Part shown: piece by piece, positions 8,464 through 34,251 of the stretch
Layout: the number at the start of each line of letters is the position of its first letter
How positions within the stretch are numbered: position 1 is the stretch's first letter
Source of the DNA: a virus
Lineage: Duplodnaviria; Caudoviricetes
IMG/VR virus record: IMGVR_UViG_3300025723_000026
Coordinates: 1-64,000 of that record
Length of the DNA stretch: 64,000 nucleotides
Strand: one strand, 5' to 3'
Translations under genes and position numbers: made by a program
The notes under the pieces: model-generated
Told to the model about the DNA's origin: nothing
Seen by the model: the letters and a program-made list of their open reading frames with translations, nothing else
Database searches by the model: none

Positions 8464-8536
8464 ATATGATAAAACTATTTAGTGACCCTTGTCACTAAAT
8501 TTATCACAAAGAGAAACTTTTAGTTAAAAAAGTTTT

Positions 8537-9085
8537 TTAGGCGTTGTATACGATAACGGGACCACCAGCGCTACAAGCAACTCCAGTAAACGGGCCGTAG
8601 ATAATACCAACAGTTGAAGCAATTGAAACGCCAGTTATAGCACCAACAAAGCTTCCAGTAGCTGTAAGGCCGTTGAAGGTTGCATTTGTACCGAGAATCT
8701 GTAAAGCACCAAATGTACCGTAGGCCGAACCACCAGCTGTAATTGTTGTAAACCCCCCCTGACCTACGATAAAGTCTTCAGAGTTTACTACATAATTAAG
8801 AGTAGCGAACTTTGGATAGATACTAACAGCAGTAAGAGAAGGTGGCGGGTTATTAGGTGACCAGAAACTACCTGAAAGGGGTTGGGTACCGAGTTTAACG
8901 TCAGAAGGAATATAGGCTTGGGTATTATCTGGCCATGCATTGTCAGTTACTACAATAGATGAAATTGCAGGAAAACGACTATCACCGACAATCTCAACAT
9001 ATATACCTTGTTCGTATTGAGAGCGATTTACTACGTAAGACGGATTGTAAGAAGCATATGCTAAGGGAATCTGTGGTTCAGTCAT
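8537..9085 (-). CDS. Hypothetical, probably structural, protein
   Basis: 182 aa ORF with TAAATA upstream. Confidence 0.6.
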   Translation of the reverse strand: MTEPQIPLAYASYNPSYVVNRSQYEQGIYVEIVGDSRFPAISSIVVTDNAWPDNTQAYIPSDVKLGTQPLSGSFWSPNNPPPSLTAVSIYPKFATLNYVVNSEDFIVGQGGFTTITAGGSAYGTFGALQILGTNATFNGLTATGSFVGAITGVSIASTVGIIYGPFTGVACSAGGPVIVYNA

Positions 9086-12075: not shown

Positions 12076-12615
12076 TTATCGTGATCGACGATTGGCAATA
12101 AATTGTCCCTTTTTATTACGTCGACGCTTAATTGTTTTCTTTAGCGGCTTTATGACAGTCTTTACGCTCTTCTTAGTGTCAGACTTAGTTATCTTTTTAG
12201 CTTTCAGATTCTTTGCTGTTCGAATAGCTGTACCAATTTTTGTAAGCCAATCCTGATGATTACGATCGTAAAGTGCACTCATTGCTTCATTAACTAAAAA
12301 TTCTATTCGTTTGAAAATATACTCCTTATGATCAGCATGATAATCACCACGAACCAGTTCCTGAATGGTAAGCAATGCATTTTCAATATTATCTTCACCT
12401 CCACGTTCGTAAGAAGATTTAACAAGAGTATCAGGTTCATAGCTCATGTAATATAACATCTTAGCCTTAATATTAATTTTCTTGAGCAACCTATTATTAT
12501 GAAGATTGAATTTACCAAGAATAGGATGGATAGAAGCCTTTACAACAAAAGGTGTGAGATTATTATAAATAATTTTGGCTACTTTAGCTTCAATGGATGG
12601 TGACGTTGTATTCAT
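12076..12615 (-). CDS. Hypothetical protein with basic C-terminal tail
   Basis: 179 aa ORF abutting the deaminase gene. Confidence 0.6.
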   Translation of the reverse strand: MNTTSPSIEAKVAKIIYNNLTPFVVKASIHPILGKFNLHNNRLLKKINIKAKMLYYMSYEPDTLVKSSYERGGEDNIENALLTIQELVRGDYHADHKEYIFKRIEFLVNEAMSALYDRNHQDWLTKIGTAIRTAKNLKAKKITKSDTKKSVKTVIKPLKKTIKRRRNKKGQFIANRRSR

Positions 12616-13052
12616 TACGACTTAATACTAGGCGAATTTGCACCTGATTGCAACTGAATAATTTCGATCCCATAAAATTTAAATATATCCAAAGCACGCA
12701 TATCCTTAGTGTAATTATCTCGATAGACAACTTTCTTTATTCCATGGGAAATAATTTGTCGTGCACAACATGAACATGGTAACAACGTACATGCAATCAA
12801 TCGACCTTCCCCGCGCTTAAACAAGGAGAGTAAGTTTGTTTCAGCATGTAAGATATACGGGCGCCTTCCATCCCGATCAGCCCAAAAGTAATCTGACATT
12901 GTTGTACCAGGCGCTAGACCATTATACGCTACCCCAAGTACTCTATTATCATAATCTAAAGCACATGCCCCTACTTGAACGTAGGGGTCCTCACTTCTCA
13001 TAGCAGCTGTCTCAGCTAAAGCTAAAGCATATTGTTCCCAAGAAGGTCTCAT
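12615..13052 (-). CDS. dctD: dCMP deaminase
   Basis: RSEDPYVQVGAC...GVAYNG, HAE and PCxxC zinc ligands. Confidence 0.88.
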   Translation of the reverse strand: MRPSWEQYALALAETAAMRSEDPYVQVGACALDYDNRVLGVAYNGLAPGTTMSDYFWADRDGRRPYILHAETNLLSLFKRGEGRLIACTLLPCSCCARQIISHGIKKVVYRDNYTKDMRALDIFKFYGIEIIQLQSGANSPSIKS

Positions 13053-17194: not shown

Positions 17195-17350
17195 AGTGCT
17201 TAATAGTCGAGTTTATTTATTAGGTTCTCACAGGCCATCTCTTATGTACGATGAAACTTTAGTGTAAAAATCTATACATATATTAGCCTAAATAACGGCT
17301 AAAGCAATTAGTTTTTTACAAATTTATAAAATAACTTAACTCGTTATAAA

Positions 17351-17587
17351 TTAAATGCTTACAACCATTCCTGCATCAGAATTCCAAGCTTGAGAATTAT
17401 ACTTTGAGGTATAGCGCTGAACTTTCTTTTTTGGTTTATAATCTACAATACGATAAGGATTTTCAGTTGTATAATGCCACGAATAATCCCTGAGATGCTT
17501 AGTAACTTCTGACATTGTCTTGTATGGTGAGCATAAAGAAGCACCCCATGCCTTTCCCGTCCAGCGTTCAATGACGTATTGATGCAT
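17351..17587 (-). CDS. Hypothetical protein
   Basis: 78 aa ORF. Confidence 0.55.
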   Translation of the reverse strand: MHQYVIERWTGKAWGASLCSPYKTMSEVTKHLRDYSWHYTTENPYRIVDYKPKKKVQRYTSKYNSQAWNSDAGMVVSI

Positions 17588-17787
17588 TAGTCTTTCTTTT
17601 TTGTGCTAATAAAACGGCCTGGCCGTGAAAAGGAATAATACAACATGGCAGAAGCAAACCAAGTTTCAATAGTATATGGAATATGAAAGTTAAACAACGT
17701 ATTAATTGCGGCAATTAAAGCAATTGGACAAATAATAAACAAAAAGATAGCAAATACAATAAGACTAATACCGGAGATAAGTTTCAT
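17587..17787 (-). CDS. Small membrane protein
   Basis: 66 aa, two hydrophobic segments; sigma70-like promoter upstream. Confidence 0.55.
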   Translation of the reverse strand: MKLISGISLIVFAIFLFIICPIALIAAINTLFNFHIPYTIETWFASAMLYYSFSRPGRFISTKKKD

Positions 17788-17842
17788 ACTCCTATAATAA
17801 TTTAATAATTAAATAAGGCAAGCAAGCATTTGTCTATTTAAG

Positions 17843-17916
17843 TGCGCCAGGAGAGACTTGAACTCTCGACTCCAAGCTTAAAAGGCTCGTACTCTGACCA
17901 ACTGAGTTACTGGCGC
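17843..17916 (-). tRNA. tRNA-Lys(UUU), CCA not encoded
   Basis: GCGCCAG/CTGGCGC acceptor; loop CT-TTT-AA. Confidence 0.92.
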
Positions 17917-17917
17917 G

Positions 17918-18496
17918 TTAAACATTAAAAGACTGACATTCTTTTAATGTTTTTAAAATTGTAAGATTGTTGAGTTGCTTCGTTATAATATCAATTTTAG
18001 CTCGTTGTACATTATATGCAATAGGATTCTTCGGATCGAGGTATAAATTATATTCTGTTAAAAAGAAATCGGGAAAATAATTATGCGTAGTACCATTAAG
18101 ATCTGTCCACGGTATTGGTTGCGTTGGCCGTATCCACGCGATATTAAGTTCATCCAGTCTTTTTGCTAGCGCTTCTTCCCAAGATGAGTCGAGTAGCACT
18201 TCTGTACCGTCTTTGCATTTATATGTACGAGTGGATCTTACTAGTCGACGGTGTGTAGACTTAAGAGCTATAGCTCTTAATTTGTCCTTCGTTTCTTGTG
18301 TTTGTATACGGCCTTTAGTATTGTATTTTGCATTCTCATATTTTCCCTCAGCGTGTGCTTTTCTAACTCTCTCACTAGCACCTATTTTAATACTCTCGCT
18401 GTGCAATTTTTTATTTAAGTCAATATTTGGATTTTCTGAGCACCATCTCATGTGAATACTATTCAATACCTCTTTATCACAATACTTACATTTCAT
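17918..18496 (-). CDS. Free-standing PD-(D/E)xK endonuclease with NUMOD3-like segment
   Basis: DSSWE...YFPDFFLTEYNLYLDPK; KGRIQTQETKDKLR. Confidence 0.7.
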   Translation of the reverse strand: MKCKYCDKEVLNSIHMRWCSENPNIDLNKKLHSESIKIGASERVRKAHAEGKYENAKYNTKGRIQTQETKDKLRAIALKSTHRRLVRSTRTYKCKDGTEVLLDSSWEEALAKRLDELNIAWIRPTQPIPWTDLNGTTHNYFPDFFLTEYNLYLDPKNPIAYNVQRAKIDIITKQLNNLTILKTLKECQSFNV

Positions 18497-18548
18497 ATAA
18501 GTATTTATTAATGAAGGCGAGTATAATACGATTATTGTTTAAATAAAA

Positions 18549-18625
18549 TGGTACAACCGGAGGGACTTGAACCCCCATAAGCCGAGGTAGAAGCTCGGTA
18601 CTTTATCCAGTTAAGTTACGGTTGC
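18549..18625 (-). tRNA. tRNA-Arg(UCU)
   Basis: Cloverleaf, loop CT-TCT-AC, CCA encoded. Confidence 0.92.
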
Positions 18626-18703
18626 ATAAATTTATAAAAAAGGCGGGTGTGATACGTCCCCGTTATTCAAACGAATATATTAGCTTAAGAAAAATTTTAC
18701 AAG

Positions 18704-19294
18704 CTAATTTTTAAATTCTTTTAAAAAGATCTCCCAATCAGTAATATTATGCTTATTACGAATATAGAAGGTTGATGGAAGCTCTCTCGGAATTATAGGC
18801 TGCCGTACAAGCTTTAGTCCAGCCTCTTCAGGTGTACGTGATCCTTTCTTTGAATTGACTTCCTTGTGACAGAGAACGCAATTCGTCCAATCAGTCTTAC
18901 CACCTCGGGTACGAGGAATGACATGATCGATATTGGCTTCAGATTTTGAAAGCTTCTTATTAGTATATTGACAGGTGCCGTTATCTCGAGTCCAGATATT
19001 ACTATGGGTAAACTTCGGACGTTTCATTGGTACCTTATCATACTCACAGAGAACAATAACAGTAGGAATCTTAATGCTACCACGAGTTGTTTTAATATAC
19101 GAGGCCTTTTCATCAAAAGGCAAATTAACCCAATCCGACCATTTGAGTGGTACCATCATATCATATCCTCGAATATCTAAAGCTGTTGCTGTATTCTGAT
19201 ACATCATGACAAAAGCATCAGCTGGAGATTTTGTATGAATGGCTTGCCAGTTTCTATTAAGAACTAGCACTGTCTCCTGTTTAAGGTACGACAT
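18704..19294 (-). CDS. HNH endonuclease (McrA-like)
   Basis: VLVLNRNW, IWTRDNGTCQY, NIDHVIPRTRGG, NCVLCHKEVN; start moved to MSYLK because the longer ORF overlaps tRNA-Val. Confidence 0.85.
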   Translation of the reverse strand: MSYLKQETVLVLNRNWQAIHTKSPADAFVMMYQNTATALDIRGYDMMVPLKWSDWVNLPFDEKASYIKTTRGSIKIPTVIVLCEYDKVPMKRPKFTHSNIWTRDNGTCQYTNKKLSKSEANIDHVIPRTRGGKTDWTNCVLCHKEVNSKKGSRTPEEAGLKLVRQPIIPRELPSTFYIRNKHNITDWEIFLKEFKN

Positions 19295-19325
19295 ATATGT
19301 ATATTTAATTAATTGTAAAGAAAGA

Positions 19326-19401
19326 TGGTACACCAGAAGGGATTCGAACCCCTGACATTCTGCGTGTAAGGCAGACGCTACTACCACTGAGCTACTGGTG
19401 C
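19326..19401 (-). tRNA. tRNA-Val(UAC)
   Basis: Cloverleaf, loop CT-TAC-AC, CCA. Confidence 0.92.
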
Positions 19402-19472
19402 GTTATTATTTTTTTAATATATCAACAAAATGCATGATATGCAAGAAAAATAGAGTAAGATTAAATAATCAT

Positions 19473-19928
19473 ATGCCAATTAGATTAAAAGATTCTAGTA
19501 CGTGGCTGGCTGATGTAATAACTTCGTTCATTGGATCGTGGACATTTATTATTGTACAATCCATTATACTAACAATTTGGATTTTAATCAATGTTCTTAA
19601 TTTGACTCATTTTGATCCTTATCCATTTATTCTTATGAATCTTTTCCTGTCTTTTCAGGCAGCCTACGCTACCCCGCTCATCCTTATGTCTTCCAACAGA
19701 CAAGCCGAGCGCGATAGATTACACATGCAACAAGAGCATGAAATTACAGAAGAAGATCACATTATAATAAAAGATCTTAAAAAGATTTTAGATGACCTAC
19801 AGGAAGATGTTCTCTTAAGTAGACTATCACTTGAACAGCATAAGAGACTAGAGGCCGAACACGAAGAATTAAAAACGGGTATAACCGAAATAAAAGAATT
19901 ACTTCTCAATAAGAAGAGAAAAATTTAA
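19473..19928 (+). CDS. DUF1003 family membrane protein
   Basis: GSWTFI...FDPYPFILMNLFLSFQAAYATPLILMSSNRQ; TAAATA upstream of 19473 start. Confidence 0.85.
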   Translation: MPIRLKDSSTWLADVITSFIGSWTFIIVQSIILTIWILINVLNLTHFDPYPFILMNLFLSFQAAYATPLILMSSNRQAERDRLHMQQEHEITEEDHIIIKDLKKILDDLQEDVLLSRLSLEQHKRLEAEHEELKTGITEIKELLLNKKRKI

Positions 19929-19943
19929 AAATGTCTAGTTGAT

Positions 19944-20017
19944 TGGAGCGGGTAGAGAGAATTGAACTCTCGCATCAAGTTTGGTAAACTCGCAGGCTAC
20001 CATTACATCATACCCGC
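19944..20017 (-). tRNA. tRNA-Gly(ACC), rare A34 anticodon
   Basis: GCGGGTA/TACCCGC, U73, CCA; stem CGAGT/ACTTG, loop TT-ACC-AA. Confidence 0.9.
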
Positions 20018-20020
20018 ATT

Positions 20021-20105
20021 TGGTACTCATGGTCGGGGTCGAACCGACACTCCTTACGGAACAGGATCCTAAATCCTGCGCGGCTGCCAGTTACGCCACA
20101 TGAGC
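20021..20105 (-). tRNA. tRNA-Leu(UAG)
   Basis: Class II cloverleaf, loop TT-TAG-GA, CCA. Confidence 0.92.
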
Positions 20106-20113
20106 ATTAAAAT

Positions 20114-20189
20114 TGGCTGCCAAGGTAGGGATCGAACCTACGACCTAGAAGTTAACAGCTTCCCGCTACTACCGCTGAGCTACTTGGCA
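20114..20189 (-). tRNA. tRNA-Asn(GUU)
   Basis: Loop CT-GTT-AA, G73, CCA. Confidence 0.92.
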
Positions 20190-20200
20190 TTTAAAATTTA

Positions 20201-20275
20201 TGGTCGGGCACCTCGGTGCTGCCCCGAGTATTTCCTGGTCCCAAACCAGGCGGATTGCTGTCTTCCTCGTGCCCG
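20201..20275 (-). tRNA. tRNA-Pro(UGG) with non-canonical T-loop
   Basis: CGGGCAC/GTGCCCG; loop TT-TGG-GA; T-loop GGCAGCA. Confidence 0.82.
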
Positions 20276-20305
20276 TTAATATTATTTTATCTTTTTATTT
20301 ATAAA

Positions 20306-20381
20306 TGGCTACGGAGGAAGGGCTCGAACCTTCAACCGGCGGATCCAAATTCCGCTGCGCTACCAATTGCGCCACTCCGTA
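20306..20381 (-). tRNA. tRNA-Gln(UUG)
   Basis: Loop AT-TTG-GA, G73, CCA. Confidence 0.88.
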
Positions 20382-21032
20382 TTAAGTCTTATATTTACAA
20401 TTATTGAAATGAAACCGTGCCATAGTATTTTTAGCGCCTTCCTTTAAGCAATAAGGGCATTTAATTTTTTGTCGCTTAAGACCTCTATTACGCCGCCCGC
20501 CAAACGACGGTGACTCTTTGTTTCGCTGTAAAAGTGATTGGCGTATTTTTTCTTTATGCTCTTCAGTTTTATTACCTGATGCAGCTTTTCGTGCATGTTC
20601 ACGCTGCAATTCAGGGTTTTTTCTAGCAAAATTATTTGCTATCATTTTTTTTCTCGTTTCGTCACTTGCTTTGCGATTAGTGGCTTTTAAACGTAAAATA
20701 GCCTTTGTTTCATCAGTATGTCGTTTATTTTGAAACGTTAAATTATTTTTTTCTTTTGATCCGTAACCGCCACCGGGCATTAAATTGTAAGTATCAGATC
20801 GTAGACAAAAATCAGCATCAACAATTTCTGCTTCTCTATAAAGCATCTCTTCTTTGGAGTCAAAATATTCTAATATTTCTTTTGTAAAGCACGCCTTACC
20901 ATATTTGTTAATATCTCTTATAAGAGCTTTACCTGAGCCAAAATAATAATCGTTAATATCGCGGGACTGATGTACACCTATATAAAACTTATTATTAATG
21001 TTATTTGTAATTTTATACAAGTAATATATCAT
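20382..21032 (-). CDS. GIY-YIG homing endonuclease (Seg-like)
   Basis: YYLYKITNNINNKFYIGVH, YFGSG, YNLMPGGG, NUMOD3-like KRHTDETK. Confidence 0.88.
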   Translation of the reverse strand: MIYYLYKITNNINNKFYIGVHQSRDINDYYFGSGKALIRDINKYGKACFTKEILEYFDSKEEMLYREAEIVDADFCLRSDTYNLMPGGGYGSKEKNNLTFQNKRHTDETKAILRLKATNRKASDETRKKMIANNFARKNPELQREHARKAASGNKTEEHKEKIRQSLLQRNKESPSFGGRRNRGLKRQKIKCPYCLKEGAKNTMARFHFNNCKYKT

Positions 21033-21076
21033 ATAATAATATTTATGTAAAGGTAGCACATTAATCAATTAAAGAC

Positions 21077-21149
21077 TGGAGAATAGCGGGATCGAACCGC
21101 TGACATTCTGCTTGCAAAGCAGACACTCTACCAACTGAGTTAATTCCCC
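21077..21149 (-). tRNA. tRNA-Ala(UGC), CCA not encoded
   Basis: G3:U70, loop TT-TGC-AA. Confidence 0.92.
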
Positions 21150-21156
21150 GTAAAAA

Positions 21157-21234
21157 TGGAGCGTCAGGTAGGATTTGCACCTACGGCTTTAGGGTTTTGC
21201 AGACCCTTCCTTTGGGCTTCTCAGGCACTGACGC
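21157..21234 (-). tRNA. tRNA-Cys(GCA)
   Basis: Loop CT-GCA-AA, U73, T-loop TGCAAAT. Confidence 0.88.
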
Positions 21235-21238
21235 ATAT

Positions 21239-21329
21239 TGGCGGATAGGGTAGGATTCGAACCCACGGTACCCTTCCGGGTACTTCTGATTTCAAGTCAG
21301 ATGCAATAGACCAACTCTGCCACCTATCC
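21239..21329 (-). tRNA. tRNA-Ser(UGA)
   Basis: Long variable arm, loop CT-TGA-AA, G73. Confidence 0.92.
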
Positions 21330-21337
21330 GTAAAAAT

Positions 21338-21511
21338 TTATTGACAATGATAATTGAGGTAACGTTGAGCGGCTTTAGCTGTTAAACCACCTTTACCTTT
21401 TAATGAACGTGCTTTAGAACATGTAAGCTTACCTTTAACCTGACGTTTAAGAATGCCTGGGTGACGTGGTTCATCGATACTTTTTTCTGTTACATATTCC
21501 TTAAAAGTCAT
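21338..21511 (-). CDS. Small basic late protein (57 aa) inside tRNA array
   Basis: Translated by hand: MTFKEYVTEKSIDEPRHPGILKRQVKGKLTCSKARSLKGKGGLTAKAAQRYLNYHCQ; TAAATA upstream. Confidence 0.7.
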   Translation of the reverse strand: MTFKEYVTEKSIDEPRHPGILKRQVKGKLTCSKARSLKGKGGLTAKAAQRYLNYHCQ

Positions 21512-21523
21512 AAAGTTATTTAA

Positions 21524-21613
21524 TGGAGGAAGCTGAGGGATTCGAACCCTCGGAGGCGATAAAGCCTCGGTTGTTTAGTAAACAACTCTCTTAAACCGCT
21601 TGAGTAAGCTTCC
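21524..21613 (-). tRNA. tRNA-Ser(ACU), rare A34 anticodon
   Basis: GGAAGCT/AGCTTCC, long variable arm, stem GTTGT/ACAAC, loop TT-ACT-AA, CCA. Confidence 0.88.
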
Positions 21614-21619
21614 ATAAAA

Positions 21620-21692
21620 TGGTGTCTCTTGAAGGTAACGCTCCTTCTCATCATCGTTCGTAGCGACGAGTCTAAAGTCTTTTAGAAGAGAC
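21620..21692 (-). tRNA. Atypical tRNA-Arg(ACG)
   Basis: GTCTCTT/AAGAGAC acceptor plus ACCA; stem CGTCG/CGATG, loop CT-ACG-AA; D-arm and T-loop (AGCGTTA) non-canonical. Confidence 0.65.
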
Positions 21693-21698
21693 ATAAAA

Positions 21699-21773
21699 TG
21701 GTCAGGAGGCTGGGATTTGCACCCAAACCGATTCTTTCACAGAGAATAATGCTACTATTACACCACAACCTGA
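21699..21773 (-). tRNA. tRNA-His(GUG), with U-1:A73 and acceptor mismatches
   Basis: Stem ATTCT/AGAAT, loop CT-GTG-AA, CCA. Confidence 0.78.
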
Positions 21774-21779
21774 TAAAAA

Positions 21780-21856
21780 TGGCGGAGTTAACGGGACTCG
21801 AACCCGCACTCACTCGCGTGACAGGCGAGTGCTTTAACCAATTAAGCTACAACTCC
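21780..21856 (-). tRNA. tRNA-Asp(GUC)
   Basis: Loop CT-GTC-AC, G73, CCA. Confidence 0.93.
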
Positions 21857-21861
21857 GTTCG

Positions 21862-21935
21862 TAGGACTAGATGGACTCGAACCATCAACCCTTTCGTTAT
21901 CAACGAAATGCTCTGACCGGTTGAGCTATAGTCCT
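21862..21935 (-). tRNA. tRNA-Ile(GAU), CCA not encoded
   Basis: Loop TT-GAT-AA. Confidence 0.9.
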
Positions 21936-21944
21936 GTAGAAAAT

Positions 21945-22020
21945 TGGTGGCAGGAGCGGGAATCGAACCCGCAATCTTTGCGTTATGAGCGCAACGACTT
22001 AACCGTTTGTCCATCCTGCG
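21945..22020 (-). tRNA. tRNA-Met(CAU), initiator-like
   Basis: C1xC72 mismatch, loop CT-CAT-AA; anticodon stem GCG/CGC rather than GGG/CCC. Confidence 0.82.
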
Positions 22021-22031
22021 TCAAAAAAAAA

Positions 22032-22106
22032 TGGTGGAACCGTCGAGACTCGAACTCGAAACCAATTCGTTAAAAGCGAACTGCTCTACCATTGAGCTAC
22101 GATTCC
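22032..22106 (-). tRNA. tRNA-Lys(UUU), second gene
   Basis: Loop CT-TTT-AA, CCA; sequence unlike the 17843 copy. Confidence 0.92.
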
Positions 22107-22113
22107 GAGAATA

Positions 22114-22195
22114 TGGGCAGAGAAGGACTCGAACCTTCGAACTCCGAAGAGAGGAGATTTACAGTCTCCGGCAATTGCCGCTATGCGATCTACCC
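22114..22195 (-). tRNA. tRNA-Tyr(GUA), CCA not encoded
   Basis: Class II variable arm, loop CT-GTA-AA. Confidence 0.92.
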
Positions 22196-22207
22196 TTAAA
22201 AAATGGT

Positions 22208-22621
22208 TTATGACGGTTTTGAACGTCTTTTATGGTAATGAAAATCTGCATGACAGTTTCTACAAAGAGGTATACACTTTTTAATTTCTTCCTGTAAGAG
22301 CTGCGTGTTATATCTATTAACAAAATAAGATATTTCATTTGCTTTCGTACTCGGATCTACATGATGTAAATCTAAACACCAAGGACGATCTTCATTACAC
22401 TTTGTGCATTTAAGTGTAGCTTTATATTCAAGAAATTTATTTCTAAAATTAGCGTTCGATTTATACGCACTAGCAATATATTTTTTCTTATTTGCGTCGT
22501 AATGTTTTCTAGCGTACTTGTTTTTTGCACATTGCTTACAATAGGGAAAATAACCATGCTTTGTATTTTTATAATATGAATTAAGTGACTTTGTCTCTTT
22601 ACATTGACTACAGGTTTTCAT
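22208..22621 (-). CDS. HNH homing endonuclease
   Basis: CSQC...CKQC; CTKC...LDLHHVDP...KCIPLCRNCHADFH. Confidence 0.85.
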   Translation of the reverse strand: MKTCSQCKETKSLNSYYKNTKHGYFPYCKQCAKNKYARKHYDANKKKYIASAYKSNANFRNKFLEYKATLKCTKCNEDRPWCLDLHHVDPSTKANEISYFVNRYNTQLLQEEIKKCIPLCRNCHADFHYHKRRSKPS

Positions 22622-22657
22622 GTCTCCAAATATTTATTGTTTTGGAGGCTATTTTTA

Positions 22658-22734
22658 TGGCACGGAGAGTAAGAATCGAACTTACCCAGTCGGATTTGGA
22701 GTCCAACTCGCCTATCCTTGGAACATTTCTCCGC
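22658..22734 (-). tRNA. tRNA-Trp(CCA) with atypical D-arm
   Basis: GCGGAGA/TCTCCGT, G73, loop CT-CCA-AA. Confidence 0.82.
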
Positions 22735-22750
22735 ATATAAAAATAAAAAA

Positions 22751-22833
22751 TGGAGCCAGTGGAGGGACTCGAACCCCCGTTGTTTGTATACCGCTTTACA
22801 AAAGCGGTGCTGTCGCCGCTGAGCCACACTGGC
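22751..22833 (-). tRNA. tRNA-Thr(UGU) with 12-nt variable region
   Basis: Loop TT-TGT-AA; variable region TATACAAACAAC. Confidence 0.88.
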
Positions 22834-22909
22834 ATATTTTAATTTGACAATATGAGTAGTACGCCACGGCCGGTCAAATTAGCGACCGCGGCTCAACAAC
22901 CAACTAGAA

Positions 22910-22921
22910 ATTTCAAGGAAC
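22910..22921 (-). promoter_or_regulatory. boxA-like antitermination element upstream of tRNA array
   Basis: GTTCCTTGAAAT downstream of promoter at 22959-22986. Confidence 0.5.
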
Positions 22922-22958
22922 AAAAAACCCCATTAAGGGGCTTTCGAATATACTTATG

Positions 22959-22986
22959 ATTATACATACTATCGTGCAATCTACAA
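22959..22986 (-). promoter_or_regulatory. sigma70-like promoter for tRNA array
   Basis: TTGTAG-N16-TATAAT. Confidence 0.7.
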
Positions 22987-23003
22987 GCTAAAAATAAATT
23001 TTT

Positions 23004-23129
23004 TTATTCGTGATGAAGTTGCGAAGTAGGTAGAGGACGATAGGAGCGAATAAGCTTTCTAACACCACTAATTGTTATTACCGAGCCCATAATAAAAACA
23101 ATGAGGACGCATCCAAGGATTATCCTCAT
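23004..23129 (-). CDS. Small membrane peptide (41 aa)
   Basis: MRIILGCVLIVFIMGSVITISGVRKLIRSY... Confidence 0.4.
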   Translation of the reverse strand: MRIILGCVLIVFIMGSVITISGVRKLIRSYRPLPTSQLHHE

Positions 23130-23178
23130 TTTAAGGATTTGAATAAAGTCCTGCTCTCGTTGTTGTTCTAATCTCATT

Positions 23179-23433
23179 TTAAGCAGCTACACTCCTCGAA
23201 AAGTTCTTCACACAGCTCCTACTACCAATAGGCTCATAATACATCTTTGTTTCCTTAAAGGATTGAGGAGACATAATTTGAATCTCAGCTCCTGTCTTGT
23301 GAGAAAAAACCATACGACCAAGTCTTGGCTTTACGACGTTATGCTTATGAGCACATGACGAGCAAAATACCGTATTAGGGAGTACTTCAAGTCGTTCAGG
23401 TTCAATAATATTTGTACAAGTTCTACAGTTCAT
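23179..23433 (-). CDS. DksA/TraR-type C4 zinc-finger protein
   Basis: MNCRTCTNIIEPERLEVLPNTVFCSSC matches CxxC..I..eRL...P.t..CxxC. Confidence 0.72.
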   Translation of the reverse strand: MNCRTCTNIIEPERLEVLPNTVFCSSCAHKHNVVKPRLGRMVFSHKTGAEIQIMSPQSFKETKMYYEPIGSRSCVKNFSRSVAA

Positions 23434-23546
23434 ATCACCAAAATTTATGAATAAAATGAATAGCGATATAAATGACACTAGTCCATAGTGCTAAGCTGAG
23501 TAAAAATGCCGTTAACCAGGATAGAAGAATTTGCCAGGATTTCATA

Positions 23547-23702
23547 TTATTTCCTCTTCTTTCCTGCATCTGAGCGTTGAGCTCGAGACTTAACGCCGAA
23601 CAACCGCCGACGTGCGGCGGTTTCCTTTTGCTCTTTTGCTGCAAAACTAGTCTTAGAAGTATTAGCTCCCCAGACTTTTACGATGTTGTTTTTTGTTGCC
23701 AT
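23547..23702 (-). CDS. Small basic protein (51 aa)
   Basis: MATKNNIVKVWGANTSK...; longer track ORF overlaps tRNA-Leu. Confidence 0.5.
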   Translation of the reverse strand: MATKNNIVKVWGANTSKTSFAAKEQKETAARRRLFGVKSRAQRSDAGKKRK

Positions 23703-23716
23703 AATTGTAATGAAAT

Positions 23717-23804
23717 TGGTAGTGCGGGTGGGATTTGAACCCACAATGTTTCTAATGTAAGGGATTTTAAGTCCCTTGCGTTTCACCAATTTCGCCACCG
23801 CACC
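23717..23804 (-). tRNA. tRNA-Leu(UAA)
   Basis: Class II, loop CT-TAA-AA, CCA. Confidence 0.92.
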
Positions 23805-23819
23805 ATATTTTCTAAATTG

Positions 23820-24143
23820 TCAATACCAGTTTAGATAGACTGGTTGATTATTGCAATCTAAAAATTCATTTTGTTTAAACTCTACACACTTATATGTGCC
23901 TATCTCCTCAAGAAAAAGTTTATCTCCTGATGTCATAGGATTTACATATCGCATACCATCTCTAGTAATTGGAGTTTTATGAACAATATGACCAAGTTCG
24001 CACGCTGCTTTGAGAAGAGTTTTTTCTTTACCAGTTCTTGATACTTTCTTTTGAGCACGTTCAATGACCCGGTGCATCTTCTTAAAAGATCTTTCTAGAT
24101 CTTTAGCTTTAGTATCGATATCCTTAAGAATGTATTGTTTCAT
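23820..24143 (-). CDS. Hypothetical protein
   Basis: 107 aa ORF between tRNAs. Confidence 0.6.
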   Translation of the reverse strand: MKQYILKDIDTKAKDLERSFKKMHRVIERAQKKVSRTGKEKTLLKAACELGHIVHKTPITRDGMRYVNPMTSGDKLFLEEIGTYKCVEFKQNEFLDCNNQPVYLNWY

Positions 24144-24150
24144 TTTAAAA

Positions 24151-24225
24151 TGGTGCGACAGGTCAGAGTTGAACTGACTTCCTTCCCGTTATGAGCAGGC
24201 CGCTCGACCGTTGAGCTTCTATCGC
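24151..24225 (-). tRNA. tRNA(CAU), elongator Met or Ile2
   Basis: Loop CT-CAT-AA, paired 1:72, CCA. Confidence 0.82.
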
Positions 24226-24369
24226 GTTAAATTATTCTTATATATTACCGGAAAAGAAAATATGTTTCAAGCAGCAAAAGCACAACACCGAAAATAATTG
24301 AAGCCTTTATTACTGTAGGATGATTCCAGATATCTTGAAGAAAGATACGAATAGGATTAAGCTTAATCA

Positions 24370-24540
24370 TTAAGGTAGCTGCTCCTCAGGAGGATTCAAA
24401 AGATCCTTAATCTCAGCGTTAATGCGCTTGATCTCATCGCCAAAAGCTTTAGCTGTAGACTTCTTACGTAACTTAGTTTCTTCGAGTTCTTGAACGAGTT
24501 GGTATACCTGGGCTTCTCTGGATGGTTTTGGGTTTGACAT
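24370..24540 (-). CDS. Small coiled-coil protein (56 aa)
   Basis: MSNPKPSREAQVYQLVQELEETKLRKK...; TTGCTT-N16-TATAAT 8 nt upstream. Confidence 0.6.
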   Translation of the reverse strand: MSNPKPSREAQVYQLVQELEETKLRKKSTAKAFGDEIKRINAEIKDLLNPPEEQLP

Positions 24541-24589
24541 TACTGATGATTATACATATATTTTTGTGTAAAGCAAGCGATTTTTATAG

Positions 24590-24681
24590 TGGTACTCCTG
24601 CCCGGTTCTGCCCCGGGATCGCGCCCTCATCTAGGACTTCTGGTGTATAAGACCAGTGTTTTACTGTTAAACTACAGGAGC
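24590..24681 (-). tRNA. tRNA with UAU anticodon (Ile), long variable arm and GGCAGAA T-loop
   Basis: GCTCCTG/CAGGAGT-A-CCA; stem CTGGT/ACCAG, loop CT-TAT-AC; 22-nt variable region. Confidence 0.8.
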
Positions 24682-24682
24682 A

Positions 24683-25486
24683 TTATGTATCTATAATAGA
24701 TTCTGAACTCGAATCATCAAGCTTTTTTCTCTGAATATTTGTATAAAGCTGTTTTAATTTACTAATAAATTCTTTAAAATACTTTTGATAGGCTGGATTG
24801 GACTTATTACGATAGAGTGTATTAATGAATCCGTTATAGTCAGATAGAAATTGTGGTACAACAACTTCAGAAATCTTTGTAGAGTTAATGAGGTTTGCTA
24901 TTGACTTGAGAAGAAGCATACGTCTGCTCTTCCAAAAGGTTCTTCCTGAACCTGATTTACTACGACGATAGAGTTCTTTTTGCTGAAGATCAATTTCGTG
25001 CAAGATTGCAGCTATCTGAACAGGGAACTCATTTTGTGCTGTATAATAATCTCTCTTACTACCTACCTTATTGCCAGCTGTTGCTTTGAGATAGGCTTCT
25101 GTTGGTTTTTTATAATTCTTAGCATGAAAAAGCTCATGCACTATCTTATTACGTTTTGTATTATTCGGTAGAGCACTATACTTTTGATAGTTTAATGAGA
25201 TAGTATCTGTTTTTCTATCATAGTCAGCATCACCAAGACTCTCGTCAAAATTGACAGATACATATGCTTTACTTTCTTTACGTTTTACCTCATCATAGTA
25301 CTTTATTGACCCCAAGATCATTGTACCGTCTTGCTGTAATCTCTTTGCATACAATTCCTTAGGATCATTATTTCCTATCACTGTAGGATTAAAGAACTTT
25401 AAGTATGTATTATATACAAGACTAACCTGTCTCTCTTCTTCATCTGAGAGAGTACTCTCTACTATAAAGGATTTAAAGGGAAGCAT
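24683..25486 (-). CDS. Putative zinc metallopeptidase-like protein (HExxH)
   Basis: KIVHELFHAK; N-terminus MLPFKSFIVES. Confidence 0.55.
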   Translation of the reverse strand: MLPFKSFIVESTLSDEEERQVSLVYNTYLKFFNPTVIGNNDPKELYAKRLQQDGTMILGSIKYYDEVKRKESKAYVSVNFDESLGDADYDRKTDTISLNYQKYSALPNNTKRNKIVHELFHAKNYKKPTEAYLKATAGNKVGSKRDYYTAQNEFPVQIAAILHEIDLQQKELYRRSKSGSGRTFWKSRRMLLLKSIANLINSTKISEVVVPQFLSDYNGFINTLYRNKSNPAYQKYFKEFISKLKQLYTNIQRKKLDDSSSESIIDT

Positions 25487-25495
25487 TAAAGATAC

Positions 25496-25678
25496 TTATC
25501 GACCCTGCTTTATCTTTCTATCTAACGCCTTTTGCTTGCGCTTACGCTTTTGACCTGATGACTCAAAATATCGGTGATTACGTACTTCCTCTAAAACACT
25601 ATCAGAATCTATTTTAGTTTTAAGACGTCTTAAAACACGATCAATATCTTCACCTTTTCTTACTTCTACCGAATGCAT
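25496..25678 (-). CDS. rpsU: Ribosomal protein bS21
   Basis: VEVRKGEDIDRVLRRLK...VLEEVRNHRYFESSGQKRKRK. Confidence 0.85.
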   Translation of the reverse strand: MHSVEVRKGEDIDRVLRRLKTKIDSDSVLEEVRNHRYFESSGQKRKRKQKALDRKIKQGR

Positions 25679-25681
25679 ATT

Positions 25682-26044
25682 CTATTGCTGATGTAAAGCT
25701 AAATCAACAAGCCTATCATACTGATCCTCTTCTATCTCATGATGCTTACCCTCGTCCTTGTATACTACAAAGTAATCATAATAATAACGATCACCATCAC
25801 TATACCTATCATCCCATACAACATAGACTCTACCGTTGTTAATACCTACATGTGCTCTAGCTTGATTTCCAATTGAAACATATTGCTCAACCCAACTTTT
25901 ATCTTGTAACTGTTTTTGTAATTCTTTATGTTCAGCTTCTGGTTCATGTACTTTAGCTGAAGAAGGCATTTGTTCACGGAAATCTGAATCTGATTCCTGA
26001 TAAATTCTTGTGTACGCTTCGGCAATAAGCTGTTCGTCGTTCAT
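25682..26044 (-). CDS. Hypothetical late protein
   Basis: 120 aa, MNDEQLIAEAY start, TAAATA upstream. Confidence 0.6.
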   Translation of the reverse strand: MNDEQLIAEAYTRIYQESDSDFREQMPSSAKVHEPEAEHKELQKQLQDKSWVEQYVSIGNQARAHVGINNGRVYVVWDDRYSDGDRYYYDYFVVYKDEGKHHEIEEDQYDRLVDLALHQQ

Positions 26045-26059
26045 ATGTCGAATTATTTA

Positions 26060-26434
26060 TTAAAAATCATCGTTGTTTTCTATAATAGCGGTCTCTGCTT
26101 TTAGTTTTTCAAGATGAGCTACAATTTCTTGGGTTACAAGCTCTTTTGCTTCTTCCTCCATCCATCCATAATGACAAATAGCTTCATTACTCTTTCGTTC
26201 TTCAATAAGATAACAGAGTTCACTGAGCTCAGAGAAAATAGCTTTGACTCTCTGATTATGTCCACGAACAAAATCTGCACGAGATAGCTCATGATTAATG
26301 ATTCTATTCTGTACATACCAGTTATAGATATGCTTATTGAATTCCTCTGTTAGTTCGATTTCTTCTAAGGAATATTCGTTATTCATTTTCAGGTAATTTC
26401 CAAATAATATATCCAGCTCTCTCATCGTATTCAA
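26060..26434 (-). CDS. Hypothetical protein
   Basis: 124 aa ORF. Confidence 0.55.
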   Translation of the reverse strand: MNTMRELDILFGNYLKMNNEYSLEEIELTEEFNKHIYNWYVQNRIINHELSRADFVRGHNQRVKAIFSELSELCYLIEERKSNEAICHYGWMEEEAKELVTQEIVAHLEKLKAETAIIENNDDF

Positions 26435-26579
26435 GAGAAAGCTTCATAAATTTACTATATAGACTCCAGGCAGGCCCTGCAATAAGCTTACGAGTTATTT
26501 CACTCCAATCAGTACGGCAGACGATCTTCCAACAAATATTACCGAGATGGTAAAATAGTAAAGCTAAAAATTTATTCAT
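26379..26579 (-). CDS. Hypothetical protein
   Basis: 66 aa ORF. Confidence 0.5.
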   Translation of the reverse strand: MNKFLALLFYHLGNICWKIVCRTDWSEITRKLIAGPAWSLYSKFMKLSLEYDERAGYIIWKLPENE

Positions 26580-26592
26580 GTAGATATATAAT

Positions 26593-26832
26593 CTACTTTT
26601 TTTGTTTACCGAGCTTCTTTACAAAGAAGTTAATCTTTGCCTGTTCCATAGTCTTCTCGACAACAATCCAGCGAAGTGGTTTTCCTTCGTGCTCGTTTTG
26701 CTCATTAAAAATAGCTCTACGAATAATTGATTCACGTTCATCGTAAGTAGGCTCATACTTAAAGACAATAGTCCTAGTATACTTTGTTTCGTTCTTAGGT
26801 TTTGATTTTGCTTTTAATGGTAATTTAGCCAT
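26593..26832 (-). CDS. Hypothetical protein
   Basis: 79 aa ORF with sigma70-like promoter. Confidence 0.55.
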   Translation of the reverse strand: MAKLPLKAKSKPKNETKYTRTIVFKYEPTYDERESIIRRAIFNEQNEHEGKPLRWIVVEKTMEQAKINFFVKKLGKQKK

Positions 26833-26911
26833 TTCTATATACTATAGGAATTATATTTTTTTACAAGCTTAAAAAGTGCTCCAGGTGCTCAACCAGAAAC
26901 TAAATTAAACT

Positions 26912-27397
26912 TTATTTAACCTCGATACTAATATTGTGTACCTCCGGTTTCACTGTCGGGACCTTAACTCGTAGTAACCCGTCGGTGTATGTTGATGAGA
27001 TGTTTTTAACATCCGTATTGTCATTAAGAGAGAAGGACAATTGTCCCTTTCTACGGCTAATGCCTTTACGATGGAAGACTACTGTCTCATCATATTCAAC
27101 TTCTTCCTTATCAACAGCGATCACGAGCTTACCCTCCTTGACCGATACGTTGATATTATCCTTTCCTACACCAGCCAATGCTACTTCGATGTAGTAGGTG
27201 ATTGGGTTGCCGTCTGGATCGGTTTCTGATACAATGTTATAAGGATAGACTGCATTTGGAATATCAAATGCTTTATCGAAGTCCTTAATGACATCGGTTA
27301 GCCACTTATCGTTAAACAGCGCAGGGAGGTGACTGAATCCCGTCGCTGTAGCAGGAATGATCCTGCCAATCGTGTATGGTGTTATTGTGTTTGTCAT
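26912..27397 (-). CDS. hsp20: Small heat shock protein (Hsp20/alpha-crystallin)
   Basis: YPYNIV, IEVALAGVGK, HRKGISRR, YTDGLLRVKVP, ISIEVK. Confidence 0.92.
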   Translation of the reverse strand: MTNTITPYTIGRIIPATATGFSHLPALFNDKWLTDVIKDFDKAFDIPNAVYPYNIVSETDPDGNPITYYIEVALAGVGKDNINVSVKEGKLVIAVDKEEVEYDETVVFHRKGISRRKGQLSFSLNDNTDVKNISSTYTDGLLRVKVPTVKPEVHNISIEVK

Positions 27398-27460
27398 ATG
27401 TTTTCTCCTTTGTTAAGCGAGTTAATATGTTCACTCTAGTCTCGGTTGAGCACCTGAGCA
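27398..27460 (-). promoter_or_regulatory. hsp20 5' UTR with ROSE-like thermometer hairpin over the SD
   Basis: CTCGCTT-AACA-AAGGAG pairs with a bulged G (UCGCU motif). Confidence 0.6.
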
Positions 27461-27495
27461 ATATTATTTATATAGGCTATTCTAAAAAATAGCAA

Positions 27496-27768
27496 TTATT
27501 TTTTATACCGATAATAAAAGTAAAGTGTTATAAGATATCAAACAATACCAAAACAATAATTTACAAATAACCAGAGCTGAAATCCTTTACCTAAGAGATA
27601 AAACATTGCAAACACATACCCTGCTAAAACAAGATAAATCATCGCAGCAGAAAAATCTTTAGCAGATTTTGTTTTAAAGAGTTTATAGAGCTGAGGGAAC
27701 CAACTTACTGCCCAACATATAGACATGAGAAACCCGCTTATTTCAATGGCATCTCTCGTAATCTGCAC
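27496..27768 (-). CDS. PQ-loop/SemiSWEET-like membrane protein interrupted by in-frame TGA (27538-27540)
   Basis: WFPQLYKLFKTKSAKDFS motif; the frame continues after TGA as YLITLYFYYRYKK then TAA. Confidence 0.65.
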
Positions 27769-27769
27769 G

Positions 27770-27779
27770 TAAATATTTA
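27770..27779. promoter_or_regulatory. Palindromic bidirectional late-promoter-like element
   Basis: TAAATATTTA between divergent starts at 27768 (-) and 27783 (+). Confidence 0.5.
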
Positions 27780-27782
27780 AGC

Positions 27783-27941
27783 ATGCTGACAGAATATATA
27801 TTCGAACTTGTGGAGAATGAAACGCCTAAGCTTCTTAATGTTGTAGCTACAACAAAGGAAGAAGCTGAAAAGAAGCTTAAAGCTCGTTACGGAGAACAAG
27901 TAGATTTAAAGTTATTAGATCTTAGAAGACTTATCTACTAA
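27783..27941 (+). CDS. Small hypothetical protein (52 aa)
   Basis: MLTEYIFELVENETPKLLNVVATTKEEAEKKLKARYG... Confidence 0.55.
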   Translation: MLTEYIFELVENETPKLLNVVATTKEEAEKKLKARYGEQVDLKLLDLRRLIY

Positions 27942-28541
27942 ATTTATAGCAACATCGTGGAAATTAATTTGCTTTAGTAGACCATTTACTATTCGTATTT
28001 GTAACTTCACTCTTTCTTCTAAGCTGTATGACTTGACAGGTGTCTCAACCGTTACACTAGGGATATCACGTTTCCTTAATGCTCTTTCAAGTGTCCCTGC
28101 TGTTGGTAGATGGCCACGCACTATAACACCTTTATCAGTCTTATCTCCTATTGCCGACTTTGCCAATGGTACATCCAATTCAGCTAAAACAGCTTGAACT
28201 TTGTCCTTCATACCTGGAGAGCAATAAGCATATACTTCATCAGTTGTATCATCTTCATGAAGTGCTATAACCAATCTTGGCTGAACTTCTTCAATTTTAG
28301 CTAGAATTTCATCTTCTATTGGTAAAGAATCCTTTTTATCAAAATGTCTATTAGGATCAACTCCATCCAATCTTCTCTTACCTGTTGGATTAACATCAGC
28401 AATTACAACAATGTTCTCTTTTCCTTTATACCTTTTAGCTGCTATATTACCAGCTGGTTCATCACCGTGAATACCGCCAATCAAAACAACAGGTCCTTCT
28501 GTTGTCGCTAGAATAGATTCTACTAGAATATCAAACTTCAC
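27915..28541 (-). CDS. Succinylglutamate desuccinylase/aspartoacylase-like (M14) zinc hydrolase
   Basis: GGIHGDEPAG, DPNRHF, IALHED. Confidence 0.8.
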   Translation of the reverse strand: MKFDILVESILATTEGPVVLIGGIHGDEPAGNIAAKRYKGKENIVVIADVNPTGKRRLDGVDPNRHFDKKDSLPIEDEILAKIEEVQPRLVIALHEDDTTDEVYAYCSPGMKDKVQAVLAELDVPLAKSAIGDKTDKGVIVRGHLPTAGTLERALRKRDIPSVTVETPVKSYSLEERVKLQIRIVNGLLKQINFHDVAINLVDKSSKI

Positions 28542-28558
28542 AGAATTATTTAAGTTAA

Positions 28559-29233
28559 TTACACCTTTATCTTTTCTCTATAAGGCTTAAAATGTTCTTT
28601 AAATCCCTTAACTATAGCGTCATAGTTCTTTAGCTCTTTTGTATTGAGCTTTTTATTAGCTTTGAGAGAATTAAAGCCTGTAGTAAGATATGCTTGAAGC
28701 TCATCGTTAAAAACAGCTTTTGTATATCCTAGTTCATAAAGAACATCTTCTGCCTTTTTACGAACTGATTTATTAAGCTTTTTAAGAATATCGTTTGCTT
28801 TCTTTTTATATTCTTTATCTAAAAAGTATAGAGCGTGACAACATTCATGTTCAATTGTATTAGTGTCGTTATTTGATCCAATGAGATAGTAGTTACGACT
28901 TTCAATTTTACCTACAATCTTATCATGAATATCGGTTATAATACTATCGTAAATATTAAAGTCCTCTACCTCATTATCATATAGATCTGAAATAACAGGA
29001 CCAGGTATATTAAACCCACCCCAATCTATAGGATAGGTAAAAGAGCCTTCATTACCTTTTGAATAGATAGCCATGAGCTCTACTAAGGTAAAGCGCTTAC
29101 CGCGGATTTGTTTAAAAGGAGATTCGTAGAATTCTTGTACCCTGCAAAACGTCATAGCAAGATCATACATATCCTCTATCTGACAAAGATAAATTCCTGG
29201 GTATAGATTTTTAAGAGAATATTTGATCTTCAT
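28559..29233 (-). CDS. Hypothetical protein with HExxH motif
   Basis: 224 aa; IEHECCHALYF. Confidence 0.6.
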   Translation of the reverse strand: MKIKYSLKNLYPGIYLCQIEDMYDLAMTFCRVQEFYESPFKQIRGKRFTLVELMAIYSKGNEGSFTYPIDWGGFNIPGPVISDLYDNEVEDFNIYDSIITDIHDKIVGKIESRNYYLIGSNNDTNTIEHECCHALYFLDKEYKKKANDILKKLNKSVRKKAEDVLYELGYTKAVFNDELQAYLTTGFNSLKANKKLNTKELKNYDAIVKGFKEHFKPYREKIKV

Positions 29234-29244
29234 TTTATATTTAT

Positions 29245-29319
29245 TGGCATCCTCGACGGGATTCGAACCCGTGCTAAGCCCGTGAAAGGGGCTGGTGCTA
29301 ACCGCTACACTACGAGGAC
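29245..29319 (-). tRNA. tRNA-Glu(UUC)
   Basis: Loop CT-TTC-AC, G73, CCA. Confidence 0.92.
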
Positions 29320-34230: not shown

Positions 34231-34251
34231 AAATTGGTGGAGGCGAGGGGA

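Follow-up and report, generated by a model that had tools for sequence, protein, structure and literature searches.

The tRNA-Gly gene with anticodon ACC located at positions 19944-20017 of this viral DNA, as judged from its sequence, probably encodes a working elongator tRNA of a large, AT-rich and uncultured phage, in which it would act as a GGU decoder replacing the GCC-type tRNA-Gly of the clade. The most likely reading is a replacement of GCC, as opposed to a specialised adaptation to the fibre genes. The window, i.e., the whole stretch of DNA analysed, covers positions 1-64,000 of an IMG/VR record of 76.3 kb, the completeness of which is about 35% according to CheckV.

Structure and identity of the tRNA-Gly(ACC) gene

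The minus strand is the coding strand of this gene according to ARAGORN, and the anticodon is therefore seen as GGT on the strand presented.

19944-20017, minus strand: tRNA-Gly(ACC) gene, 74 nt, CCA encoded (ARAGORN, Rfam RF00005, direct reading and family covariation)
19983-19985, minus strand: anticodon ACC (GGT on the plus strand), A34 being the complement of T19985 (direct reading)

The Rfam tRNA model RF00005 matches over its full length (model positions 1-71) with 56.5 bits, well above the gathering score (29), the E-value over the window being 1.7e-9, and ARAGORN concurs with this assignment. The acceptor stem GCGGGUA/UACCCGC forms the seven pairs G1-C72, C2-G71, G3-C70, G4-C69, G5-C68, U6-A67 and A7-U66, and is followed by the discriminator base U73 and the encoded CCA. 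The 5-bp anticodon stem CGAGU/ACUUG closes a 7-nt loop (U32 U33 A34 C35 C36 A37 A38), the D-loop reads AAUGGUA and the T-loop UUCAAUU. The bases U8, A14, G18G19, U33, G53, UUC, A58 and C61 can all be read in the gene. The identity set of bacterial GlyRS consists of G1-C72, C2-G71, G3-C70, U73, C35 and C36; it is complete here, and the same six elements are carried by the GCC-type relatives described below. The clean cloverleaf with Gly identity elements and a TT-ACC-AA loop, as described in the first-pass annotation, is thus borne out by ARAGORN, Rfam and direct reading, the strand being minus. The D-stem contains one mismatch, U11.C24, which is shared by all 29 distinct sequences of the family and is therefore not a defect of this tRNA.

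The tRNA-Gly species dedicated to cell-wall cross-bridges in Staphylococcus have lost G18G19 and have a weakened T-stem. The phage gene does not share these traits, as shown by the presence of G18G19, by the T-stem GAGAG/CUCUC with its three G-C pairs and by the T-loop UUCAAUU. A scan for promoters and terminators around the gene gave nothing above chance.

The tRNA array and its neighbourhood

The gene is embedded in a large array of tRNA genes, which is interspersed with endonuclease-like ORFs.

17842-29319, minus strand: array of 23 tRNAs for 18 amino acids (Phe and Pro missing), without a second Gly tRNA (ARAGORN, Rfam)
20021-20105, minus strand: tRNA-Leu(UAG), 3 nt upstream of tRNA-Gly(ACC) on the same strand (ARAGORN)
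19398-19928, plus strand: gene of a DUF1003 protein, convergent on the 3' end of tRNA-Gly(ACC), used as a query for relatives
18704-19387, minus strand: HNH homing-endonuclease-like ORF within the tRNA island
20382-21068, minus strand: GIY-YIG (SegE-like) homing-endonuclease-like ORF within the tRNA island

tRNA-Leu(UAG) and tRNA-Gly(ACC) are probably co-transcribed. Genes for ribonucleotide reductase (RNR) and a dCMP deaminase lie on one side of the array, and both ends of the window carry Gly-rich tail-fibre-like genes in plus orientation. The absence of GCC and UCC tRNA-Gly from the window, noted at first, extends to the whole 76.3-kb record, in which neither GCC, UCC nor CCC is detected by ARAGORN and Rfam. 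Since this record is about 35% complete, the expression "only Gly tRNA" holds for the fragment alone. In two near-complete relatives (88 and 91% complete), all tRNAs lie within one region of about 30 kb and there is exactly one Gly tRNA each; the tRNA set of the window is thus probably the complete set of its phage.

The island is hypervariable. The relative L001, whose RNR protein is 100% identical, is devoid of the part of the array holding tRNA-Gly(ACC): its island (5466-8850) is 3.4 kb long with 4 tRNAs, where the matching segment of the window (17341-25980) has 8.6 kb and about 20 tRNAs. The whole 21.7-kb L001 locus contains 7 tRNAs.

Several further RNA genes were observed in this part of the genome. 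A second tRNA with a CAU anticodon (24154-24225, minus strand; Rfam 50.5 bits, missed by ARAGORN) is a candidate initiator, elongator Met or lysidine-type Ile tRNA. A tRNA-like gene (24593-24681, minus strand), seen in the window by Rfam alone, combines a UAU anticodon with an extended extra arm; its window copy has a D-loop without GG (AACAGUA) and a non-standard T-loop (GGCAGAA). This gene of 89-95 nt is conserved in L001 (7214-7304), L026 (10250-10343), L432 (691-785) and L435 (9589-9681). A tmRNA gene missed by ARAGORN is found at 34232-34882 on the minus strand (RF00023, 45.5 bits, E 9e-17, just below the gathering score of 47). Its T-loop is split by a group I intron (RF00028, 34260-34484, 77.7 bits), its 5' end is GGGGGCGUACUGGCUUCGAC, its 3' exon ends with GUCCCCUCGCCUCCACCA, and its tag frame ends with APLAIAA. 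Accessory genes uncommon in phages are also present, coding for a sulfotransferase-family protein (10089-10907, plus strand), a PQ-loop membrane protein (27538-27768, minus strand), a DUF401/citrate-transporter-like membrane protein (33030-34103, minus strand) and Hsp20 (26912-27397, minus strand).

Probable descent from a GCC-type phage tRNA-Gly

The RNR large subunit and the DUF1003 protein encoded next to the tRNA served as queries for the retrieval of relatives. The tRNA family was defined by the D-arm AUGUAAYGGUAGCYUG, and its copies were sought in IMG/VR with an anticodon-blind pattern. Among the 83 other copies retrieved, G34 is by far the commonest state (75 copies), followed by C34 (7) and U34 (1), with no instance of A34, so that the A34 allele of the window is a singleton among 84 members. 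The nearest copy is 84.5% identical; the 11 mismatches over 71 aligned positions include compensatory exchanges within anticodon-stem pairs, which argues for an old and maintained lineage of tRNA-Gly(ACC). The cloverleaf of the family could be validated by covariation, the window gene being aligned with 28 distinct copies: 95% of the cells are paired, and 15 of the 21 pairs are altered on both sides. The window gene keeps all stem pairs and all family-invariant bases. It thus belongs to the family by its shared body and covarying stems, and stands apart from the G, C or U of the other members by its A34.

The likeness to the GCC-type members (e.g., those of contigs L187, L085, L086 and G007) covers the acceptor stem, the D-arm with U11.C24, the T-arm, U73 and CCA, as well as loop positions 32, 33 and 35-38. 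The role is also the same, that of the sole Gly tRNA with a purine at position 34 in the array. Divergence is concentrated in the anticodon arm, where A34, G30-C40 and U31-A39 are found in the window, in contrast to G34, C30-G40 and C31-G39 in the family. The near-complete relatives G006 and G007 have one Gly tRNA each, which is GCC, and the ACC tRNA thus occupies the GCC slot. Exact-pattern scans with the anticodon arm detected no second copy of the window A34 allele in the accessible IMG/VR records or JGI metagenome contigs, from which those very close to the window may be missing. A blastn search of INPHARED with the tRNA region gave generic tRNA similarity only and no close cultured relative; INPHARED queries with two other ACC families matched ordinary tRNA-Gly genes.

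A second tRNA-Gly(ACC) gene was found in the relative L252, which is syntenic with the window over 16.4-37.6 kb at 69-86% nucleotide identity and carries, as does the window, Gly(ACC), Ser(ACU) and Ser(UGA). Its Gly(ACC) gene belongs to the other tRNA-Gly body of the clade, being the ortholog, by sequence and position, of Gly(GCC) in L002 and G006; its acceptor, anticodon and T stems have diverged from theirs in a compensatory manner. Since ACC occurs there in a different tRNA-Gly body, two independent G34-to-A34 switches took place in the clade. A pattern for this second body retrieves only L252 (ACC) and the L002 contig (GCC), the GCC copy of G006 varying at a fixed pattern position. Conservation of A34, which had been singled out as a check of the initial interpretation, therefore holds in part: L252 also has Gly(ACC), in a different body, whereas A34 is found in 0 of the 83 family copies, and GCC is retained in G006 and G007.

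Both switches are accompanied by the same flip from C30-G40 to G30-C40. Over the distinct anticodon arms collected, which are not phylogenetically independent and whose positions 32, 33, 37 and 38 are fixed by the search patterns, G30-C40 is present in 11 of 14 ACC arms vs 1 of 17 GCC arms, and C31-G39 in 0 of 14 vs 12 of 17. The parallel between A34 and the 30-40 flip is no more than suggestive.

ACC anticodons in phages and cells

A more generic pattern (UUACCAA, a gap of 14-15 nt and a standard T-loop) was run on IMG/VR and on 185,579 species genomes. Among the 116 IMG/VR matches listed, 25 are true tRNA-Gly(ACC) genes according to ARAGORN, which makes at least 25 in total. These 25 listed genes have 14 distinct 5' halves and mostly lie in tRNA arrays; 13 are found alongside Gly(UCC) and 1 alongside GCC. 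None of the 120 matches listed from the 185,579 species genomes is a tRNA, hence no cellular tRNA-Gly(ACC) among them (Fisher p = 4e-9 vs the viral matches). With chance matches taken as a rough yardstick, this contrast of 25 viral genes with 0 cellular ones among the matches listed makes the ACC Gly tRNA a phage feature. The near-absence of ACC from cells, stated in the first-pass annotation, is thereby supported (0/120 cellular vs 25/116 viral matches listed), and the literature agrees: tRNA-Gly(ACC) is described as "banished from nearly all organisms" (PMC6720975) and as absent in eukaryotes (PMC4928997), a gap attributed to loop instability and poor deamination (PMC6720975, PMC4928997). 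A literature search combining Gly-ACC or Ser-ACT with phage returned no paper on such phage genes. The ACC loci have a lower median GC content than the GCC-family loci (33.6 vs 40.1%) and a higher GGT/(GGT+GGC) ratio (0.85 vs 0.73), these loci being not phylogenetically independent.

Glycine codon usage

Glycine makes up 9.2% of the residues encoded by 61 ORFs, with codon shares of 61% for GGT, 21% for GGA, 11% for GGC and 7% for GGG, and it is the most U-biased four-codon family of the window genes. The codon count proposed in the first-pass annotation was run as plus-strand structural vs minus-strand genes. Gly represents 11.9% of the residues in the former (up to 24.5%) and 5.5% in the latter, and GGT is indeed enriched, with shares of 63 and 53%, respectively (chi-square p = 2e-4). 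The triple repeat GGTGGTGGT occurs 23 times on the plus strand, where poly-Gly runs of at least 10 residues are also present. The description of the structural genes as Gly-rich and dominated by GGT was therefore correct, and three genes stand out.

45733-47517, plus strand: Gly-rich tail-fibre-like gene, Gly 24.5%, poly-Gly runs, GGT 57% of Gly codons
47556-49508, plus strand: Gly-rich structural gene, Gly 23.1%, poly-Gly runs, GGT 57%
567-2840, plus strand: Gly-rich structural gene, Gly 19.6%, GGT 60%

The proteins encoded by these three genes, with 20-25% Gly and uninterrupted poly-Gly stretches of at least 10 residues, have few or no family matches. The fibre-like gene at 45733-47517 is likely a main user of tRNA-Gly(ACC).

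This bias says little about A34 itself. The GGT:GGC ratio (5.3) is not above the GAT:GAC ratio (5.4), the Asp codons being served by an ordinary G34 tRNA of the phage, so that part of the GGT bias reflects a general preference for U-ending codons in a genome of 37% GC. In the most Gly-rich fibre genes, the GGT share (57-67%) is not above that of other structural genes. Sister phages with GCC also have Gly-rich genes and GGT/(GGT+GGC) ratios of 0.79-0.90, as high as in the window or higher. Individual values are 0.84 for the window and 0.85 for L252, both ACC, and 0.90 for G006, 0.90 for L085 and 0.81 for G007, all GCC. The bias thus appears permissive and provides no specific explanation of A34, which may be nearly neutral given that codon usage does not shift between the GCC and ACC phages of the clade. 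A special adaptation to GGT as the specific cause of A34 is ruled out by this equal codon bias. The initial proposal of a Watson-Crick GGU decoder evolved for poly-Gly fibres can consequently be retained only in its first half: ACC does pair with the dominant Gly codon GGU, whereas GGT-biased sisters keep GCC and the fibre genes show no higher GGT share.

A second A34 tRNA and the state of position 34

The array contains a second A34 tRNA, which has counterparts in relatives.

21524-21613, minus strand: tRNA-Ser(ACU), second A34 tRNA of the array, split AGN box (ARAGORN)
L002, 15394-15485: tRNA-Ser(ACU)
L003, 20314-20404: tRNA-Ser(ACU)
L084, 8531-8622: tRNA-Ser(ACU)
L085, 9222-9309: tRNA-Ser(ACU)
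L086, 1161-1247: tRNA-Ser(ACU)
L252, 8753-8842: tRNA-Ser(ACU)
L432, 4799-4890: tRNA-Ser(ACU)
L434, 7694-7784: tRNA-Ser(ACU)

The ACU anticodon is invariant across 10 distinct genes of the clade with 7 different anticodon stems, which indicates that A34 tRNAs are maintained in the clade; Ser(GCU) is never found beside tRNA-Ser(ACU), and the discriminator base is not constant (U, A or G). AGA is the commonest Arg codon of the phage, which carries its own tRNA-Arg(UCU) for it. An inosine at position 34 of tRNA-Ser(ACU) would read AGA and insert Ser for Arg, which argues that A34 is probably left unmodified in these phages. By analogy, A34 of tRNA-Gly(ACC) may likewise be unmodified.

Alternative explanations

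Conversion of A34 into inosine, by the host TadA or by an unseen phage enzyme, would make the sole Gly tRNA of a phage most useful by broadening its reading: ICC would read GGU, GGC and GGA, i.e., 93% of the phage Gly codons. The loop UUACCAA does match the TadA motif YUACGAA at 6 of 7 positions (PMC11472039), and the enzyme of some bacteria has widened its range to tRNA-Leu(AAG) (PMC11472039, PMC13249217). However, G36 is invariant in the reported motifs (UACG, UAMG), where the phage tRNA has C36; the loop thus departs from the substrate consensus U33-A34-C/A35-G36 (YUACGAA or YUAMGRA), a departure that does not by itself disprove deamination. The best PDB matches of the only deaminase encoded in the record (12615-13052, minus strand) identify it as a dCMP deaminase, and it scores 20 bits with the TadA model, for a cut-off of 150; the PF14437 match at 12702-13034 was accordingly rejected as a phage TadA, since it corresponds to this dCMP deaminase beside the RNR genes. 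Considering also the poor activity of eukaryotic ADAT on tRNA-Gly(ACC) (PMC4928997) and the predicted misreading of AGA by a deaminated Ser(ACU) of the clade, the inosine reading is held to be unlikely. Escape from a host defence, either a nuclease or a modifying system acting on the anticodon loop of G34 isoacceptors, would account for the presence of A34 in two G34-type tRNAs of the clade, Gly and Ser(AGY), which would thereby become poor substrates, as well as for the recurrence of the switch in many phages. Phage tRNAs with resistant anticodon-loop changes are documented in general terms (PMC10264068, PMC11555353). This explanation nevertheless looks quite improbable, given that most clade members keep GCC, that the window bears no sign of such a conflict, and that the association of ACC with AT-rich, GGU-biased genomes fits decoding better. 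To our knowledge, there is also no defence nuclease directed against tRNA-Gly(GCC) or tRNA-Ser(GCU), which counts against it.

A34 could also be unselected, as a sequencing or assembly error, or as a recent and slightly harmful mutation in a tRNA gene heading for loss. The allele is indeed a singleton among its 84 family members, a change of G into A is what mutation would be expected to bring about in an AT-rich genome, and the tRNA island is highly variable and endonuclease-rich, L001 having no counterpart of this part of the array. Yet none of the four stems is disrupted, every family-invariant base is retained, the 11/71 differences from the nearest GCC relative include compensatory pairs, and L252 shows the same switch together with an identical flip of the 30-40 pair. 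The existence of at least 25 true phage ACC genes would in addition make a real variant far likelier than a consensus error exactly at base 34, and an error or decay is thus very improbable here. Hardly any weight is given, finally, to the use of this tRNA as a private glycine donor outside the ribosome, either for a Mom-type modification of DNA into N6-carbamoylmethyl-adenine or for a Fem-type transferase. Mom does use charged tRNA-Gly (PMC13219725); however, no Mom gene (PF25680) is matched in the 76.3-kb record (about 35% complete) even with an E threshold of 1, nor, with a threshold of 0.01, in the L252 record or in four large relatives of 73-91% completeness, and a link to Mom was therefore rejected for this lineage. 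No domain of an aminoacyl-tRNA-dependent transferase was found in the 45 ORFs scanned. The tRNA is moreover canonical (G18G19, UUCAAUU) and lies inside a decoding array, not alone beside an enzyme gene.

Proposed role in GGU decoding

The preferred reading, a GGU decoder in the slot of GCC, would involve the following steps. The gene would descend from the single GCC-type tRNA-Gly of the clade's array through the change of G34 into A34, and the two stem pairs next to the loop (C30-G40 and C31-G39) would have been rebuilt into G30-C40 and U31-A39. It would be transcribed together with the neighbouring minus-strand tRNAs and processed normally, with CCA already encoded. Charging by the host GlyRS would proceed through the six identity elements given above, to which position 34 does not belong. 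GGU would then be read by an A34:U Watson-Crick pair, providing extra capacity for the codon that represents 61% of the phage Gly codons, and demand would be heavy in the structural proteins with 12-25% Gly. The codons GGC, GGA and GGG would be covered by host tRNAs. The drawback that keeps ACC out of cells, namely that the remaining GGN codons are read poorly or loosely, would cost little to a phage tRNA, which merely comes in addition to those of the host, and A34 may be tolerated or mildly favoured in GGU-biased phages.

The charging and GGU-reading steps of this scheme have precedents in engineered tRNAs. According to PMC4928997, citing Boren et al., tRNA-Gly(ACC) is charged by GlyRS and active in elongation; GlyRS also charges ACC mutants of human tRNA-Gly (PMC4928997), and the ACC/GGU pair is nearly as good as GCC/GGU (PMC6720975). 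These constructs (Boren et al. in PMC4928997, the human G34A mutants of PMC4928997 and the IGR mimic of PMC6720975) have the same anticodon in a tRNA-Gly body, are GlyRS-charged and active on GGU, and are artificial point mutants. Unlike them, the tRNA-Gly(ACC) of the window is a natural phage gene with a retuned anticodon stem.

Relation to known systems and significance

The tRNA arrays of large lytic phages are thought to supplement the host tRNAs for the codons preferred by the phage. Those of T4-like and jumbo phages resemble the present one by their same-strand tRNA sets, their interspersed homing endonuclease genes and their often encoded CCA. T4-type arrays read Gly with U34, as in T4 tRNA-Gly(UCC), in contrast to the clade of the window, which has one purine-34 Gly tRNA (here A34) plus an A34 tRNA-Ser. 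The known bacterial A34 tRNAs are tRNA-Arg(ACG), together with TadA, and tRNA-Leu(AAG) in some Lactobacillales. In both of them as in the phage tRNA-Gly(ACC), A34 is gene-encoded, and the phage loop shares U33-A34-C35 and A37-A38 with that of tRNA-Arg(ACG). The bacterial Arg(ACG) and Leu(AAG) species are deaminated to I34 and have an invariant G36 (PMC11472039), whereas the phage tRNA is specific for Gly, has C36 and comes from a record without a TadA gene.

A broader interpretation can be put forward tentatively, as a possibility rather than an expectation: this freshwater-type clade of large phages would keep an unmodified A34 in place of the G34 found in all cells, fixed in Ser(ACU) and acquired twice in Gly(ACC) with the same G30-C40 retuning, for an advantage in decoding or in evasion of defence, the stem change making ACC workable. 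If so, the advantage might be, for instance, that NNU codons are read strictly and rapidly by Watson-Crick pairing, or that host factors acting on G34 tRNAs have no hold on the phage tRNAs, and the G30-C40 change would be a structural fix for the ACC loop, which is held in the literature to be intrinsically unstable.

Ordinary decoding of GGU, the likely function of tRNA-Gly(ACC), is not itself new. What the comparison brings is that functional-looking natural ACC genes arose repeatedly in phages, and twice in one clade with the same stem change. They provide ready-made sequences to test why cells avoid ACC, be it through loop instability or poor deamination, with A34 modification, the range of GGN reading and the rescue of the loop by the G30-C40/U31-A39 stem as testable points. 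In terms of annotation, tRNA-Gly(ACC) genes of phages are real and should not be discarded as errors. Together with the clade-wide tRNA-Ser(ACU), they also show phage tRNA sets exploring anticodons that are not available to cells, the support of the host pool being the probable reason.
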